Part shown: piece after piece, positions 19,271 through 26,372 of the stretch | Layout of the letters: every line of letters begins with the position of its first letter | How positions within the stretch are numbered: the stretch's first letter is position 1 | Virus record (IMG/VR): IMGVR_UViG_3300025138_000014 | Coordinates: 64,001 to 128,000 of that record | DNA: 64,000 bases | From: a virus | Direction: 5' to 3' (one strand) | The notes under the pieces: model-generated | Databases searched by the model: none | Seen by the model: only the letters and a program-made list of their open reading frames with translations | Told to the model about the DNA's origin: nothing | Position numbers and translations under genes: made by a program

Positions 19271-20224
19271 ATGGATTTGAGTACACGTGAGAATGAATTC
19301 CTATGGTGTGAAAAGTATCGGCCCCAAAAGGTATCAGATTGTATCTTGCCTGAGGGGCTGAAAAATACCTTTGAAACACTTGTTAAAAAAGGTGAAATTC
19401 CAAACATGCTATTCACCGGCACAGCAGGTCTTGGTAAAACTACAGTAGCAAAAGCTATTTGTAATGAACTGGACCTAGACTATATACTGATTAACGGATC
19501 CGAAGAGGGTAACATTGATACGCTCCGTGGAAAGATTAAGCAGTTTGCATCTTCAATCAGCCTTCAAGGTGGTTATAAAGTTGTTATCCTAGATGAAGCG
19601 GACTATCTAAATCCGCAGAGTACACAACCAGCACTACGTGGTTTCATTGAAGAATTTTCTAATAATTGTAGATTTATTTTAACCTGCAATTTTAAAAATC
19701 GTATTATTGAACCTTTACATTCCAGATGTGGTGTGTATGAGTTTAATACTACCAAGAAAGAAATGGCCAAGTTATGCGAGAATTTCTTTTTCCGTTTCCG
19801 GCAGATATTGGAAAACGAGTATGTCGGATTTGAACAAAAAGATGCCGCCGATCTTATTGTCAAATATGCACCGGATTGGCGACGGGTACTTAACGAAGCC
19901 CAGCGTTCTGGAGTTAATGGCCAATTGGTCCTTAGCAGTCGGGTGGTGGGCAATAGTGATCAGTATAATCTTCTGTTTCAATTGTTAAAAGCAAAAGATT
20001 TTAAAAAGATGCGCACATGGGTAGTTAATAATATGGATGTAGATGCAGCCGCTATCTTCCGTGGTATATATGATAATATGCAGACAAGTGTTTCACAGGG
20101 TTCTATACCTCAGCTTGTTCTTATTCTAGCAGACTACCAATATAAGAATGCCTTTGTAGCAGATCACGAATTAAATATTGTGGCATGTTGTACAGAAATC
20201 ATGGCTAACGTGGAGTTCACATGA
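19271..20224 (+). CDS. gp44: Clamp loader large subunit gp44
   Basis: LWCEKYRP, GTAGLGKTT, ILDEAD, PLHSRC. Confidence 0.96.
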   Translation: MDLSTRENEFLWCEKYRPQKVSDCILPEGLKNTFETLVKKGEIPNMLFTGTAGLGKTTVAKAICNELDLDYILINGSEEGNIDTLRGKIKQFASSISLQGGYKVVILDEADYLNPQSTQPALRGFIEEFSNNCRFILTCNFKNRIIEPLHSRCGVYEFNTTKKEMAKLCENFFFRFRQILENEYVGFEQKDAADLIVKYAPDWRRVLNEAQRSGVNGQLVLSSRVVGNSDQYNLLFQLLKAKDFKKMRTWVVNNMDVDAAAIFRGIYDNMQTSVSQGSIPQLVLILADYQYKNAFVADHELNIVACCTEIMANVEFT

Positions 20225-21324
20225 GAATTGATCCAGATACAAAACTAGACTATAAAGATGTGTTATTAAGTCCTAAGAGGTCTACACTAACAAGTCGCAA
20301 TGAAGTAGACCTACGGCGTGAATTTTCATTTAGGTCAACTTCAGCCCAATATTTTGGCGTACCAATTATAGCAGCTAATATGGACGGCGTTGGTACTTTT
20401 GAAATGTCTGATAAACTTGGATCAAGAGGTTTATTCACTTGTCTTAATAAAAATTATAATGTAATGGAATACGTTGCTTATTTTGATGATCCAGATATGC
20501 CATTAGATCGTAAAGAATTTTCAGCATATACAATGGGTATTAGCGATAAAGATATGGCTGACTTCCTTAGTGTATATGAAATGTGCGATGGCAATATTAA
20601 ATATGTTTGCGTGGATGTAGCTAACGGCTACACACAAAGATTTATTACATTTGTTAAAGAATTAAAGAGATATTTTCCAACCCTAATTATTATTGCTGGT
20701 AATGTTGTTACAGCAAATCAAACAGAGGAGTTAATTTTAAATGGAGCCGATATCGTTAAAATTGGGATTGGTCCTGGTTCTGTTTGTACTACTCGCTTAC
20801 AGACTGGCGTTGGTTACCCTCAGCTTTCTGCAGTTATCGAGTGCGCTGATGCTGCTCATGGTTTGGGTGGGCATATCATTGCTGATGGTGGTTGCAACAC
20901 TCCAGCTGATGTAGTAAAAGCATTTGCAGGTGGAGCTGATTTTGTTATGCTTGGAGGTATGCTATCTGGTCACGATGAAGGCGGCGGAGAAGTTATTACC
21001 AAAGTCTATGAAACAAATGAAGTTACTCTCATGGCTGACGGTTTTTATGATTCAGTATATGAAGAAAAGAACTTTGTAAAATTTTATGGAATGAGTTCAG
21101 ATACTGCTAATGTTAAACACAACGGTGGGCTTAAAGATTATCGTAGTTCAGAAGGCCGTGAAGTTTTAGTTCCTTATCGAGGTCTTGTAGATGATACACT
21201 TCAAGATATTCTTGGTGGACTTAGAAGTGCGTGTACTTATGTTGGAGCAGAACAAATAAAAAATCTAAGTAAATGTACTACATTTATTCGTTGTAATGAT
21301 ACTCATAATAGGGTTTACGAATGA
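20221..21324 (+). CDS. guaC: GMP reductase
   Basis: LDYKDVLL.PKRSTL.SR, ANMDGVG, CVDVANGY, GIGPGSVCTTR, GYPQLSAVIECADAAHG, FYGMSS, YRSSEG. Confidence 0.93.
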   Translation: MRIDPDTKLDYKDVLLSPKRSTLTSRNEVDLRREFSFRSTSAQYFGVPIIAANMDGVGTFEMSDKLGSRGLFTCLNKNYNVMEYVAYFDDPDMPLDRKEFSAYTMGISDKDMADFLSVYEMCDGNIKYVCVDVANGYTQRFITFVKELKRYFPTLIIIAGNVVTANQTEELILNGADIVKIGIGPGSVCTTRLQTGVGYPQLSAVIECADAAHGLGGHIIADGGCNTPADVVKAFAGGADFVMLGGMLSGHDEGGGEVITKVYETNEVTLMADGFYDSVYEEKNFVKFYGMSSDTANVKHNGGLKDYRSSEGREVLVPYRGLVDDTLQDILGGLRSACTYVGAEQIKNLSKCTTFIRCNDTHNRVYE

Positions 21325-21587
21325 TAAAAAATCTGTTATTATATACAAAAGACAACTGCATCTATTGCCACTTTCTAAAAGAAAAGTTAGATGACTGGGA
21401 ATTTAAATATGATGTAGTACATAATGTTGGCTTACCTGCCGATCATAAAACTTATCCACAATTGTATTATGAAGGTATAGATGTTCAAAGAGGTTCTTCT
21501 ACTGATCTAACAAGAGATGATCTAATGAATAGAATTGAAAGAATAGAATGGCCAAATATGGATAGCGGAGTAGAAGGTAAATTATGA
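21321..21587 (+). CDS. Glutaredoxin-like protein
   Basis: YTKDNCIYC CxxC motif and TYPQL cis-Pro motif. Confidence 0.75.
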   Translation: MIKNLLLYTKDNCIYCHFLKEKLDDWEFKYDVVHNVGLPADHKTYPQLYYEGIDVQRGSSTDLTRDDLMNRIERIEWPNMDSGVEGKL

Positions 21588-21973
21588 GTATAAGTCCTTT
21601 TGATTTTTTAAATACAATCAATTCTAGTAAAAAAGATATTATGGTAGATGACTTAGCAGAAAAAGCATATGCTCCTTTTGTTATCAATCGCACTCTATCA
21701 TACTTTCCAGATACTGTTGGAATTGCAAATGAGATGAACCGATATCATCATATAGATAAAAAGCTACAATATCACTTTCTTATAAATATAGTTAGAAAAA
21801 GAAAGCGTTTTTCTAAATGGGCCAAGGCTCAAAAAGATAGTGATATTGATGCAGTTAAGACATATTATGGGTATAGTAATGAAAAAGCCCGTCAAGCCTT
21901 AACTCTATTATCACCTGAACAAATACAGATAATAATAGAGAAGGTGAGTAAAGGTGGAAAAAGAAGAAAATAA
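21584..21973 (+). CDS. gp62: Clamp loader small subunit gp62
   Basis: PFDFLNTIN, FVINR.LS, RKRFSKW, YYGYSNEKA. Confidence 0.92.
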   Translation: MSISPFDFLNTINSSKKDIMVDDLAEKAYAPFVINRTLSYFPDTVGIANEMNRYHHIDKKLQYHFLINIVRKRKRFSKWAKAQKDSDIDAVKTYYGYSNEKARQALTLLSPEQIQIIIEKVSKGGKRRK

Positions 21974-22370
21974 AATTATACAGTGGTCTCCGCAAACTAT
22001 GCTTGAGATTACATTAAATGAACCCGATGACTTTCTCAAAGTAAGAGAAACTTTAACACGTATCGGTGTTGCATCCCGAAAAGATAATAAATTATACCAA
22101 TCGTGCCATATCTTGCATAAACAAGGAAGATATTTTATAGTGCACTTTAAAGAATTGTTCCTTTTAGATGGAAAGAAGTCCAACCTAGATGAGAATGATA
22201 TATCAAGACGAAACACAATTGCAACTCTTATGTCTGATTGGGGTTTGGTTACAATGGAAACTAGAGGACAAACTCTCAGTTTAGCACCATTGAGACAAAT
22301 TAAAATTATACCATTTAAAGAGAAATCAAATTGGCAACTGTGTCCAAAATATAATATAGGAAATAAATAA
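21954..22370 (+). CDS. regA: Translational repressor RegA
   Basis: DDFLKVRETLTRIGVAS, LYQSCHILHKQGRYFIVHFKELF. Confidence 0.96.
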   Translation: MEKEENKIIQWSPQTMLEITLNEPDDFLKVRETLTRIGVASRKDNKLYQSCHILHKQGRYFIVHFKELFLLDGKKSNLDENDISRRNTIATLMSDWGLVTMETRGQTLSLAPLRQIKIIPFKEKSNWQLCPKYNIGNK

Positions 22371-22410
22371 CAGCTATTCCATAACCGACTAGCTAAAAAT
22401 TAATAACTTG

Positions 22411-22418
22411 TATAAATA
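22411..22418 (+). promoter_or_regulatory. Late promoter of the hsp20 operon
   Basis: Exact TATAAATA, intergenic, 60 nt before the hsp20 ATG. Confidence 0.75.
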
Positions 22419-22420
22419 GA

Positions 22421-22481
22421 CTTGTAGAGCGGATAATCCGGCTACAATTTAATCTTGCTTGCTCAAAAGGAGATAACAATG
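22421..22481 (+). promoter_or_regulatory. ROSE-like RNA thermometer in the hsp20 5' UTR
   Basis: 5' hairpin TTGTAG..CGGA-taa-TCCG..CTACAA, then UCUU(G)CUU pairing with AAGGAGA (SD) with a bulged G; this is the U(U/C)GCU ROSE signature upstream of a small heat-shock gene. Confidence 0.7.
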
Positions 22482-22937
22482 ACAGGCTTACACACACTCT
22501 TCCCTCGCTCATCTTTTGTAGGATTTGATCATCTATTCAACGAACTAGAATGGACGGCAAAACATGCTCAGGATCATTACCCACCCCACAATATTATTAA
22601 GACAGATGAATCAGAATATTTGATTGAACTTGCTATTGCTGGGTTTTCCAAAGATGAAATTAACGTTGAAGTTAAAGATAGAACTTTGACTGTTAAAGGG
22701 GAACATATTTCTAAAGGTCGTGACTTTATTCATCGTGGTATTTCTACGAAGAAATTTAAGCGCACTTTTCGGCTGTCTGAACATGTAAATGTAAACGGAG
22801 CAGATATTCAAGACGGTATTCTGGCAATTCAGTTGCAGTATATTATCCCAGAAGAAATGCGTCCTCGTAAAATCAATATTGGTCAAACGAGGAATTCAAA
22901 TGACACAGACAAAGAACTACTTAACGAAGGCCGTTAA
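22479..22937 (+). CDS. hsp20: Small heat-shock protein (Hsp20/IbpA family)
   Basis: FVGFDHLF, YPPHNI, IELAIAGF, HRGIS...F.R.F.L, GIL.I.L, PEEMRPRKI. Confidence 0.95.
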   Translation: MTGLHTLFPRSSFVGFDHLFNELEWTAKHAQDHYPPHNIIKTDESEYLIELAIAGFSKDEINVEVKDRTLTVKGEHISKGRDFIHRGISTKKFKRTFRLSEHVNVNGADIQDGILAIQLQYIIPEEMRPRKINIGQTRNSNDTDKELLNEGR

Positions 22938-23184
22938 GTTACCACTCAACATACTAAAATCAATTTGGAACGGCATTAAATTAAGTGCTGATATCCGTCA
23001 AACACGAGGTGAACTTTCAAAACTAAATGATGCTGAGTTAAGAGACATCGGTATAACTAGAGGTGATATTGAAGCGATAGCAAGAGGCGATGCTGATTTA
23101 CTACGTTCCGCAGTAAGGAATAAATTTTATTTACCAGATGGTCCTATAAGTTATGTTAATCCTAATTTAAAAGGATGGAGCTAA
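22900..23184 (+). CDS. DUF1127 (YjiS-like) small protein
   Basis: RQTRGELSKLNDAELRDIGITRGDI is the DUF1127 core; GAGG SD before ATG 22900. Confidence 0.85.
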   Translation: MTQTKNYLTKAVKLPLNILKSIWNGIKLSADIRQTRGELSKLNDAELRDIGITRGDIEAIARGDADLLRSAVRNKFYLPDGPISYVNPNLKGWS

Positions 23185-23366
23185 TGACAGCTATCAATAC
23201 AAACATATCTTTCTCTTCGCCATTATCGGACTTGTGGTTAGCATTCGAACGTTGGTTCCAGATAGTGGGATACAGCCGAGCGGCAGCGGAGTTGGCAAGA
23301 CATGGTCAATTAGAAGCAGCCAAAATGTGCATGATGGAAGTGAAAAGAGTACGTAATGGAAGGTGA
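23184..23366 (+). CDS. Small helical hypothetical protein
   Basis: GGAG SD, TAATG coupling; [13 protein letters not shown] motif. Confidence 0.65.
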
Positions 23367-23577
23367 TATCGCAACAATGGGCGCTCTAATTGGCGCTGGA
23401 CTAGCAACGTTCGGAATGGGTGGCGCCGCCATCGCAGTAGGAATGATTGTTGGTAGTGTACTTAAAGTTATGCCCAAGAAGCCTGACTCTGGTACTATGT
23501 TTGTTGGTATTGCTTTTGCAGAAGCATTAGGCATCTTTGCCTTTCTAACAGCATTGTTACTTATGTTCGCAGTCTAA
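23356..23577 (+). CDS. atpE: F0 ATP synthase subunit c homologue with rewired polar loop
   Basis: MEGDI..MGA.IGAGLA..GMGGAA and [26 protein letters not shown] closely match Rhodobacteraceae subunit c as I recall it; the loop lacks RNP. Confidence 0.9.
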
Positions 23578-23789
23578 TGGCTGAGAATCATTTTAGTGCA
23601 GAAGTGGTACAACGCATAGGCTTTTACTCTTTTGCAACAATGTCTTCATTAATAGTAATATGTATTGCCTTTGGGTTTTATGCAGTATTACAAAAATTTA
23701 ATGAACCAAGTTGGAAAGAGGCATGTATTACCAATGGCGGAGTTCCCGTCCAGATTGCAAAGTCAACATTCGACTGTAAAGTCATATAA
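23577..23789 (+). CDS. Small membrane protein with C-terminal Cys pair
   Basis: One TM helix, then C..NGG.P......FDC; TAATG coupling to atpE. Confidence 0.6.
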   Translation: MAENHFSAEVVQRIGFYSFATMSSLIVICIAFGFYAVLQKFNEPSWKEACITNGGVPVQIAKSTFDCKVI

Positions 23790-23793
23790 AATA

Positions 23794-23817
23794 AAAAGAG
23801 GGCTTCGGCCCTCTTTT
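23794..23817 (+). terminator. Terminator closing the hsp20-atpE operon
   Basis: AAAAGAGGGC-TTCG-GCCCTCTTTT. Confidence 0.88.
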
Positions 23818-23821
23818 GCTA

Positions 23822-23850
23822 TTTACAACACCGTCATAATAGTTTATAAT
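23822..23850 (+). promoter_or_regulatory. Early promoter for gp43
   Basis: TTTACA-N17-TATAAT. Confidence 0.8.
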
Positions 23851-23876
23851 GATTATATCATAACGGAGTAATAATA

Positions 23877-26372
23877 TTGTCTTTTTACACATCAGTTAAT
23901 CGTTACGGCAACTCTATCTTATATCGTGGATATAATGACTCTGGAGTTGCTACAGAAACAAAATATAAATTTACCCCTAAACTTTATATTCGATCTCAAG
24001 ATACAAATACAGAATACAAAGCCCTAGATGGTACACCTGTAAAAGAAGTCAACTTTCCTAAAATGGCAGAAGCAAAAGAGTTTTGTGAACAGTACAAAGA
24101 TATTAAAGATTTCAGCGTGTATGGTCAGACCAATTATATTCAACAGTTTATTACAGATAAGTTTCCCGGCAATATTATATTTAATCCTAAACAAGTTAAT
24201 GTTGTAAACTTTGACATAGAAGTCGCTTCCGATGAGGGTTTTCCTAGACCAGAAGAAGCATTGTTTCCAGTTATATCTATTGCTCTCAAGTCTAGCAAAT
24301 CTTCCATATATGAAGTGTGGGGCCTTGGTGATTACGATCACGAGAAAACAGAATTGAATATGAATGGCGATCTTATTCGTTATAGAAAGTTTGATAGTGA
24401 GCAAGCACTTCTTGCCAGCTTCCATAAATATTGGTGTGAGAATAGACCAGATATTGTAACTGGCTGGAACTGTAGATTTTTTGATATACCATATATTATT
24501 AATAGATTGTATCGTATTGGTTCTCCAGAAGCAGTCAAAAGATTGTCTCCCTGGAACTTAGTAAATGAACGCAATACCAAAATCATGGGTAAAGAACAGC
24601 AAGGATATGAAATTGTTGGTATTCAACAAGCAGACTATCTTGAGCTGTTTAAAAAGTTTGGTTACTCTTATGGAACCCAAGAGTCATATGCATTAAATCA
24701 TGTTGCATTTACTGTTCTTGGCGAGAAGAAATTATCATATGAAGAACATGGTAGTTTGCATACACTCTATGAAAAAGATCACCAAAAGTTTATTGATTAT
24801 AACATTAAAGATGTTCAACTTGTTCAACGCATTGACGATAAGATGGGTCTTATTGAACTGGTACAAACTATGGCTTATCGTGCTGGTGTTAATATATCAG
24901 ATACATTTGGTACTACGGCGATATGGGATTCAATCATATATCGTTCACTAAATAGTCAAAAGATTGTTATCATGCCTATCACAGAAAAACAGAAACTACC
25001 TTACCCTGGTGGTTATGTAAAAGATCCAAAAGTTGGCATGCACGAGTGGGTTGTATCCTTTGACCTTAACTCACTATATCCAAATCTTATTGTACAATAT
25101 AATATGTCTCCAGAAACAATCGTTGGTGGTTATCCCCTTGAGAATGGCGTAGAACATTATATGAACTGTGACAAAGTTGTTAGCGAATATGCTGTAGCAG
25201 CTAACGGTTCTCAATATAGAAAAGATAAGCAAGGCATTATCCCTAAAATTATTATTCAGTATTATTCAGAACGTAAAGAAGTCAAGAAGCGCATGTTAAA
25301 AGCGCAGAGTGATTATGAGAAGAATAAAACCACAGAACTTGAAAGAGAAATCAATACACTTCATAACCAACAGATGGCTATTAAGATTTTGTTAAACAGT
25401 CTTTATGGCGCACTCGGTAATCGGTTCTTTAGATATTTTGATATGAGAATGGCCGAAGGTATTACTCTATCTGGTCAACTTTCTATCCTGTGGGCTGAAC
25501 GTGCTATCAATGCAGAAATGAATAAAATTCTAAATACAACGGAGAAAGATTATGTTATTGCTATTGACACTGACTCAGTCTATATTAATTTTGGTCCTCT
25601 TATTGCTAAACTGGCGCCAGCGGACCCTGTTAAAGCACTGGACAAAATATGTAAGGAGCACTTCACTAAAATACTAGCTGACTCTTATGCTAAACTGTTT
25701 GATAATATGAATGGTTATGATAATAGAATGGTTATGGAGCGTGAAGCAATTGCTGATAAAGCTATCTGGACTGCAAAGAAAAGATATATTTTAAACGTGC
25801 ATAATAACGAAGGAGTCCAGTACAAAGAACCTAAACTCAAGATCATGGGTATTGAAGCTGTTAAATCTTCGACACCTCAGGTTGTTAGAGACAAGTTCAA
25901 AGAAATTTTTGATGTTCTAATTAACGGTACTGAAGTTACCACTCAGAAATACATAGCAGACTTCAGACGTGAATTCAATTCTCTACCTCCCGAAGCCGTA
26001 TCATTTCCAAGAGGTGTGACTAATGTTACAGATTGGATAGATAGAAAGACCATTTTCAAGAAAGGCTGTCCAATTCATGTTCGTGGTTCTATTCTATACA
26101 ATAATACGGTCAAAAGTAAAGCAGTGGACAAAAGATATGGTTTAATTCAGAATGGTGAGAAGATTAAGTTTGTTTATCTCAAGATGCCAAATCCAATAAA
26201 GCAAAATGTTATAGCATTTCCGCAATATCTGCCTACTGAATTAGCCCTGCATAAATACATTGACTACGATAAAATGTTTGAGAAAACTTTTATTGAACCT
26301 ATTAAACCTATTCTGGACGCAATCGGATGGACTGTTGAAGATCAGATGACGCTGGAAGACTTTTTTGGATAA
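23877..26372 (+). CDS. gp43: Family B DNA polymerase gp43 (TTG start)
   Basis: ExoI FDIEV, SFDLNSLYP, K..LNSLYGALG, DTDS, KKRY; GGAG SD before TTG. Confidence 0.97.
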   Translation: MSFYTSVNRYGNSILYRGYNDSGVATETKYKFTPKLYIRSQDTNTEYKALDGTPVKEVNFPKMAEAKEFCEQYKDIKDFSVYGQTNYIQQFITDKFPGNIIFNPKQVNVVNFDIEVASDEGFPRPEEALFPVISIALKSSKSSIYEVWGLGDYDHEKTELNMNGDLIRYRKFDSEQALLASFHKYWCENRPDIVTGWNCRFFDIPYIINRLYRIGSPEAVKRLSPWNLVNERNTKIMGKEQQGYEIVGIQQADYLELFKKFGYSYGTQESYALNHVAFTVLGEKKLSYEEHGSLHTLYEKDHQKFIDYNIKDVQLVQRIDDKMGLIELVQTMAYRAGVNISDTFGTTAIWDSIIYRSLNSQKIVIMPITEKQKLPYPGGYVKDPKVGMHEWVVSFDLNSLYPNLIVQYNMSPETIVGGYPLENGVEHYMNCDKVVSEYAVAANGSQYRKDKQGIIPKIIIQYYSERKEVKKRMLKAQSDYEKNKTTELEREINTLHNQQMAIKILLNSLYGALGNRFFRYFDMRMAEGITLSGQLSILWAERAINAEMNKILNTTEKDYVIAIDTDSVYINFGPLIAKLAPADPVKALDKICKEHFTKILADSYAKLFDNMNGYDNRMVMEREAIADKAIWTAKKRYILNVHNNEGVQYKEPKLKIMGIEAVKSSTPQVVRDKFKEIFDVLINGTEVTTQKYIADFRREFNSLPPEAVSFPRGVTNVTDWIDRKTIFKKGCPIHVRGSILYNNTVKSKAVDKRYGLIQNGEKIKFVYLKMPNPIKQNVIAFPQYLPTELALHKYIDYDKMFEKTFIEPIKPILDAIGWTVEDQMTLEDFFG

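Follow-up and report, generated by a model that had tools for sequence, protein, structure and literature searches.

The c subunit of the Rhodobacterales ATP synthase (AtpE), represented among solved structures by the Paracoccus denitrificans protein (5DN6), is a two-helix hairpin of the PF00137 family that carries a GxGxGxG motif in helix 1 and an A-F-A-E-A-L-G-I-F ion site. The polar loop of the c subunit (ARNPS/ARQPN) links the c-ring to the central stalk (PMC3542316). Marine T4-like phages are known to carry host-derived genes of membrane bioenergetics, including psbA, plastocyanin petE and PTOX, in which the functional sites have been kept and which are read as support for the host. In Escherichia coli, mutations of the c-loop residues R41, Q42 and P43 uncouple F1 from Fo. 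Here we describe a row of five genes located between regA and gp43 in a 64,000-nucleotide stretch of viral DNA (the window, positions 64,001 to 128,000 of IMGVR_UViG_3300025138_000014, a 151-kb IMG/VR virus record; 35.9% G+C), which includes a homologue of the ATP synthase c subunit. This phage c subunit shares its family, its hairpin, its helix 1 motif and its ion site with the Rhodobacterales protein, and differs from it in the polar loop, in being encoded outside an atp operon and in lying beside phage-only genes. Like psbA, petE and PTOX, it is a membrane bioenergetic gene of host origin carried by a marine myovirus; unlike them, it has lost its coupling site specifically. We propose, with confidence that is about evenly balanced, that the phage c subunit would fit the host Fo and be unable to couple to F1, leaving the ATP synthase uncoupled or disabled.

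The assignment of the phage protein to the c-subunit family is supported by the PF00137 profile (43.5 bits, with a cut-off of 24; a genome search gave 42.8 bits), and public records label members of this family 'F0F1 ATP synthase subunit C'. Among solved structures, 5DN6 comes closest, and the nearest cellular proteins, all of 78 residues and at most 67% identical, come exclusively from Rhodobacterales (Roseovarius, Neptunicoccus, Amylibacter, Rhodovulum and Paracoccaceae), with identities of 60-67% to the Roseovarius and Paracoccaceae c subunits; the phage c subunit thus derives from the Rhodobacterales. When aligned with Roseovarius c, helix 2 differs at 3 of 27 residues and helix 1 at 7 of 33. 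Across 34 phage sequences, the ion-binding Glu56 and its flanks are invariant, and the helix 1 glycines G13, G15, G20 and G22 of the GxGxGxG motif are invariant or nearly so. While the profile, the helix 2 carboxylate and the helix 1 glycine motif are therefore all those of an F-type c subunit, the R-(N/Q)-P of the polar loop is missing; in the window, R-N-P is replaced by K-V-M-P-K-K-P-D and the loop is 5 residues shorter. A-L-R-N-P is present in all 80 cellular Rhodobacterales copies, and R-N-P in none of 85 viral copies, in which the loop takes the form K-[VYH]-M-P-K-K with the 5-residue deletion, A-[LM]-P-H-R-S or L-V-K-G-A-N; it is the main viral clade that has the shorter loop. A preliminary description, made from the window sequence alone, had called this gene an altered atpE, and the alteration lies exactly in the F1-coupling loop. 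Also unlike an F-type c subunit, the phage protein is not encoded with other Fo or F1 subunits; its neighbours are a DUF1127 protein and two further small proteins, here named o63 and o70, and these three were not found beside c in any of the nearest cellular loci. A single PF00137 match was found in each of five phage records, one of which is rated 100% complete (221 kb), and subunit a (PF00119) was not found in those five records. With regard to database entries, a phage-type loopless c subunit (HAW04348.1, in the protein cluster of P0017) has been deposited in a metagenome-assembled genome assigned to Saprospirales, probably as a mis-binned phage contig, and a second family member was recovered in a sample of the Tara series with the label <-0.22.

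A maximum-likelihood tree separates the phage from the cellular c subunits by a single branch (100/92) and places the short-loop clade (100/99) within the long-loop phage copies. This topology agrees with a single capture, after which the loop was lost in steps; the finer forks are unreliable because the alignment has only 78 columns. Among 26 distinct 73-residue c genes, the ratio of nonsynonymous to synonymous polymorphism (pN/pS) is 0.13 at a pS of 0.49, with values of 0.12 for helix 1, 0.18 for the loop and 0.08 for helix 2, and the frame is intact in all copies. The loopless form, its new loop included, is thus of long standing and maintained by purifying selection. A lone host-acquired gene in a hypervariable genome slot could be suspected of being a decaying or hitch-hiking fragment without function; this explanation is contradicted by the selection data, by the intact frame and by the conservation of partner and gene order, and we give it practically no probability. 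Purifying selection, host-like helices and an intact Glu56 would also be expected if the phage c subunit were a working replacement that keeps the host ATP synthase running, as psbA does for photosystem II, and host-derived energy-chain genes are common in phages, with a gene for a pseudoazurin-like cupredoxin adjoining the cassette in many relatives. A replacement part should, however, have kept its contact with F1, and it is the Arg-Asn-Pro of this contact that every viral copy has lost and every cellular copy has kept, in addition to the 5 residues missing from the loop of the main clade. The c-rings, moreover, are stable and not known for fast turnover, and we consider a replacement function very improbable.

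The c gene is the fourth in the row, which, together with its flanking genes and predicted signals, consists of the following features.

21954-22370, + strand: regA translational repressor, the upstream flank (PF01818, 3.5e-44; phrog_242)
22411-22418, + strand: TATAAATA, a T4-type late-promoter-like motif (motif match)
22422-22447, + strand: 5' stem-loop in the hsp20 leader (minimum free energy fold; 6 compensatory pairs, 18 relatives)
22453-22472, + strand: UCUUGCUUG and the Shine-Dalgarno (SD) sequence AAGGAG, a predicted ROSE-like anti-SD/SD hairpin (invariant in 23 distinct relatives)
22479-22937, + strand: hsp20, small heat-shock protein (PF00011, 2.5e-17; phrog_432, 4.5e-37)
22900-23184, + strand: DUF1127 (YjiS-like) protein, 94 residues (PF06568, 2.4e-10)
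23175-23366, + strand: o63, without a Pfam or PHROG family
23356-23577, + strand: ATP synthase c-subunit homologue, 73 residues (PF00137, 3.8e-11)
23577-23789, + strand: o70, 70-residue single-pass membrane protein, without a family above cut-off
23794-23817, scored on the - strand: GC-rich hairpin of 10 pairs with a loop of 4, which closes the row
23822-23850, + strand: sigma-70-type promoter-like site TTTACA-N17-TATAAT, 5' of gp43 (near-consensus, 11 of 12 matches)
23877-26372, + strand: gp43 DNA polymerase, the downstream flank (homologous position kept in relatives)

The five small overlapping open reading frames (ORFs) of the preliminary description are all present where it had placed them, co-oriented on the + strand, with TATAAATA before them and a hairpin after them. 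Successive frames from hsp20 to o70 overlap by 38, 10, 11 and 1 nt, and a purine-rich, SD-like stretch precedes each of hsp20, DUF1127, o63 and c and is missing before o70. These are not chance ORFs, since they are conserved as proteins in many diverged contigs. The row is probably one transcription unit. The hsp20 product matches the alpha-crystallin domain profile PF00011 across residues 40-134. A 9-bp hairpin at 22919-22939 spans the hsp20 stop codon about 19 nt inside the DUF1127 frame and may have a role in translational coupling of the two overlapping genes.

The arrangement of these genes in relatives was examined in a census of approximately 240 related viral loci, onto all of which the window proteins were mapped; the loci came from IMG/VR scans with the c subunit (78 loci, 60-99% identity), with DUF1127 (80 loci) and with hsp20 (the best 80 of 545 matches, chosen regardless of which other genes they carried). 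The c gene is always followed directly by o70, DUF1127 lies upstream of c wherever the contig reaches that far, and o63 separates the two in all but one lineage (L068, L074). In the approximately 80 contigs that carry c, DUF1127, o63, c and o70 keep a fixed order with tight overlaps in three genomic contexts, namely (i) the order regA-hsp20-DUF1127-o63-c-o70-gp43 of T4-like contigs, with the five genes of the row in identical order in more than 30 of them, (ii) a block behind virion-type genes that is followed by a 44-residue ORF and the pseudoazurin-like cupredoxin, and (iii) a + strand island among - strand genes, between Iron_traffic and SpoVR/DUF444/PrkA, in other myovirus contigs; the second and third contexts have neither hsp20 nor TATAAATA. 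Viewed from hsp20, DUF1127 is the next gene in 69 of the 74 relatives with enough downstream sequence among the best 80 matches, and most of these loci continue to o63 and then gp43, with c-o70 in only about a fifth. DUF1127-o63 is thus frequently found without c-o70, and c-o70 is found only behind DUF1127.

The genes of the row accordingly co-occur in relatives in a fixed order and with conserved overlaps, so that the lack of co-occurrence by which the preliminary description would have been refuted was not observed. Its picture of a self-contained five-gene system did not hold, given how few hsp20 relatives have c and that the cassette occurs elsewhere without hsp20, and its statement that hsp20 alone is common at this position was not borne out in two cultured relatives. 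Instead, hsp20-DUF1127-o63 is a common trio of this T4-like clade and c-o70 is an optional add-on pair inserted behind it; because the trio mostly occurs without c-o70, the window row is best described as the trio plus this pair. An initial view of hsp20 as unrelated to the rest of the row was softened, as DUF1127-o63 nearly always follows it within the T4-like clade. The row is hence a three-module mosaic that occupies a variable slot, between regA and gp43, in marine T4-like phages that are uncultured and whose hosts are probably Rhodobacterales. Of these modules, hsp20 and its ROSE-like leader form the first, DUF1127 and the phage-only helical hairpin o63, presumably translationally coupled, the second, and the host-derived c subunit with the phage-only one-helix membrane protein o70 the third, which occurs only behind the second.

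Several additional genes were observed around the cassette. The cupredoxin, which is pseudoazurin/plastocyanin-like and has a signal peptide, is often located 3' of the cassette (L004:4602-5030 and about 20 other loci); in some T4-like loci that lack c, it comes immediately after o63, and it is absent from the window's own genome. In the contexts without hsp20, the cassette is flanked by a 61-65-residue ORF upstream (L159:7171-7356) and the 44-residue ORF downstream (L159:8212-8346; L004:4459-4593), and both also accompany DUF1127 in loci without c. The idea that the 44-residue ORF is a paralogue of o63 was dropped (hhalign E-value of 0.054 over 16 columns). In the L068/L074 lineage, a 55-residue acidic ORF and a 40-residue hydrophobic ORF take the place of o63 (L068:3564-4461), the c subunit is a 77-residue form with the loop L-V-K-G-A-N, and a glutaredoxin-like gene follows o70. 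In the window itself, the replication genes are T4-like and on the + strand throughout. Directly upstream of the clamp-loader gene gp62 lies an 88-residue glutaredoxin-like ORF with a weak Pfam match (21321-21587), and also upstream of gp62 is a 367-residue ORF that resembles IMP dehydrogenase/GMP reductase by eye only (20221-21324).

Among the partner proteins, DUF1127 is the one with described cellular relatives. The Rhodobacter members of this family bind RNA and are under heat and stress sigma-factor control (PMC8034643), those of Salmonella are found in association with the inner membrane (PMC11707872), and in Agrobacterium and E. coli the binding partner is the membrane kinase PhoR (PMC12501420); where the YjiS paper brings up ATP synthase, it does so solely to cite AtpTheta. 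The phage protein scores 40.4 bits with PF06568 (cut-off 23.3) across residues 32-58 and contains L-R-D-I-G-I-T-R-G-D-I, and it thereby shares the D-I-G-I-x-R-G-D-I core with CcaF1 of Rhodobacter, YjiS of Salmonella and E. coli and SDP1-3 of Agrobacterium. It differs from these proteins in being longer, in its C-terminal N-x-N-L-K-G-W tail and in being coupled to the phage-only o63. This tail is conserved in all contexts, and the overlap with hsp20 is kept in relatives. Since the cellular members are stress-controlled and membrane-linked, it is reasonable by analogy to regard the phage DUF1127 protein as a stress-linked, membrane-peripheral regulator, which would also fit its pairing with hsp20.

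The o63 protein, which may start at the in-frame ATG at 23184, is phage-only and contains the motif G-Y-S-R-A-A-A-E-L-x-R-x-G, with an invariant G..RAA..L...G core in the alignment. An AlphaFold2 (AF2) model shows a two-helix hairpin with a predicted local distance difference test (pLDDT) score of 78. An o63 profile matched 421 representative clusters of 40-90-residue proteins at E-values of 1e-3 or below; the contexts sampled from these clusters were phage contigs, often with the order regA-hsp20-DUF1127-o63, and the atlas look-alikes of o63 were all viral. With regard to o70, the protein has a conserved cytoplasmic N-terminal end, a single membrane helix in which one Cys and one Gly never vary, and a small C-terminal domain with a Cys pair, which has been replaced in part of the T4-like lineage; the AF2 model (pLDDT 79.5) consists of a helix at residues 3-41 and a beta-hairpin. 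An o70 profile did not find the protein in 401 sampled Rhodobacterales genomes, where it gave one chance-level match at an E-value of 1e-3, and a word-based homologue search of a large protein collection returned 8 clusters only. Foldseek searches with the o70 and o63 models against the PDB found nothing at E-values of 0.001 or below and returned only generic helical hairpins. Co-folding of four c copies with o70 gave a score of 0.00, which we weighed neither for nor against an interaction.

The constant adjacency of c and o70 raises the possibility that the two form a ring or pore of their own, a device that would act like a holin, depolarise the membrane or exclude superinfecting phages without engaging the host Fo. 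That no other atp genes were found in the phage records searched and that a late-type promoter motif precedes the row in the window would both agree with such a device, and its two-helix hairpin topology would resemble that of small phage membrane effectors. However, an independent device would not need helices that stay close to those of the host, or an ion-binding Glu that stays invariant, over a long divergence; the periplasmic domain of o70 has been replaced in part of the T4-like lineage, and the row has no lysis-gene context in the window. We hold this explanation to be unlikely.

We favour instead an interaction of the phage c subunit with parts of the host Fo, because its helices have remained nearly identical to those of the host over this long divergence, and a c subunit that is competent for Fo and incompetent for F1, because all features for ring formation, proton binding and subunit a have been kept and only the F1 contact has been lost. 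In the mechanism that we infer, the host-like helices, the GxGxGxG packing motif and the proton-binding Glu would allow the phage c subunit to enter c-rings, or to form rings, that fit the host subunit a. With a shortened loop that lacks the Arg-Asn-Pro on which gamma and epsilon dock, rings containing phage c would transmit no torque to F1, and the ATP synthase would be uncoupled or disabled, possibly with a controlled proton leak through Fo. The o70 protein could serve as the membrane partner of c, in insertion, ring assembly or targeting, and DUF1127 and o63 could act as an associated pair of small, membrane-peripheral regulators of the stress-linked type. The uncoupling model draws on an analogy with E. 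coli uncE polar-loop mutants, in which the proton path is likewise intact and the F1 contact defective; those are laboratory point mutants of the cell's sole c gene, by contrast, while the phage c gene is a second, naturally selected gene beside the wild type.

A number of points weigh against this uncoupling model. The contact between phage c and the host Fo is one that we infer from sequence likeness; by the late stage of infection, newly made c-rings may have no unoccupied subunit a to join; and a loss of ATP synthesis looks costly to the phage, as ATP is needed for packaging. Moreover, DUF1127-o63 so often occurs without c-o70 that its association with c may reflect history and not function, a single transcript for the row is only probable, and the type of promoter varies among relatives, such that 'late' is not a fixed property of the genes. 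A more specific version of the model, in which a ring of loopless c, assembled with the help of o70, would dock on the host subunit a as a free rotor and proton short-circuit, with DUF1127 and o63 gating it from the cytoplasmic face at the site of the F1 stalk, seems to us rather unlikely.

The sequences that may control the row bear on whether it acts as a whole. An intergenic TATAAATA, as expected of a T4-type late promoter, is located 5' of hsp20, and the 14 copies that the window has of this motif all lie on the + (coding) strand, with 9 expected on both strands together. About half of the distinct relatives have TATAAATA at 68-69 nt 5' of the hsp20 ATG; the others carry TATATATA instead, several of them with TTGAC(A/T) 17 nt upstream, which yields a promoter-like TTGAC(A/T)-N17-TATATA. 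This replacement was observed upstream of hsp20 in L024, L030, L053, L096, L105 and L106. The site resembles a host-type promoter, and the operon may be driven from a promoter of this type in some phages. The label 'late' that the preliminary description had given the operon thus cannot be extended to it as a general timing, since TATAAATA is missing from about half of the T4-like relatives and from the other contexts.

Downstream of the promoter motif, 23 distinct relatives keep the 5' stem-loop, and all of them have UCUUGCUUG without variation, with AAAGGAGAU after it. A consensus fold, computed for 18 sequences, has compensatory changes at six pairs in the first hairpin and pairs UCUU of UCUUGCUUG with AGGA of the SD sequence; because the UCUU:AGGA columns never vary, this pairing shows no covariation, in contrast to the upstream hairpin. 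The leader resembles the ROSE thermometers of alpha-proteobacterial hsp20 genes in having a U(U/C)GCU-type stretch, predicted to lie opposite the hsp20 SD sequence, and a preceding 5' hairpin, and differs from them in having no Rfam ROSE match and only two hairpins, and in lying behind a phage promoter. Searched against Rfam, positions 22300-23900 matched no family at the gathering score and gave no ROSE match at E-values up to 10; the weak rows for sraA and GcvB correspond to the terminator. The thermometer of the preliminary description therefore stands in part: the covarying hairpin and the invariant UCUUGCUUG speak for it, the missing Rfam match and an unexceptional single-sequence fold (z-score of -1.45) do not, and a ROSE-like translational thermometer at the hsp20 leader is plausible. 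As predicted, it could hide the hsp20 ribosome site only, as the later genes have start regions of their own. At the other end of the row, the hairpin at 23794-23817 was scored by the scan on the - strand only, owing to the T-run there; on the + strand its stem ends in TTTT, followed by GCTATTT, and it is probably a bidirectional intrinsic terminator. The promoter-like site at 23822-23850 marks the next transcription unit, that of gp43.

The single promoter-like motif, the single terminator, the overlapping ORFs, the conserved ROSE-like leader and the recurrence of the five-gene order among T4-like contigs are the features that would be expected if the five genes formed one temperature-gated late system for membrane energetics and RNA/protein stability, for example in lysis timing or superinfection exclusion. 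Most hsp20-DUF1127-o63 loci are, however, without c-o70, the four-gene cassette is found in other phages without hsp20 or TATAAATA, and the reach of the leader ends at hsp20. We consider such an integrated system improbable.

The combination of genes described here appears to be new, as the preliminary description had surmised. Searches with tblastn for c and for o63 gave no match in 50,697 deposited phage genomes, DUF1127 gave one weak match in the same genomes, to a Sinorhizobium jumbo phage, no other cassette gene was found there, and no copy from a cultured phage was found. Literature searches on a phage c subunit, on DUF1127 together with ATP synthase and on T4-like roseophages yielded no paper that describes the combination. 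What the present analysis adds is a census by module, the strong linkage of hsp20 to DUF1127-o63 and a leader that covaries. The census defines o63 and o70 as two phage-only small-protein families, and also a recurrent stress trio, hsp20-DUF1127-o63, whose leader is conserved.

While known phage energy genes support the host, here a core rotor subunit of the ATP synthase has been captured, stripped of precisely its F1-coupling loop and maintained by strong selection in numerous marine phages that are abundant and uncultured. If the phage c subunit poisons or short-circuits the host Fo, this would be a new principle of host takeover, namely subunit mimicry directed against the ATP synthase, and if it acts as a free rotor, it would give the phage timed control of the host's proton motive force and respiration rate. 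The loopless c subunit would then also be a natural tool for the study of rotor-stalk coupling and would bear on how Roseobacter-type hosts spend energy during marine infection.

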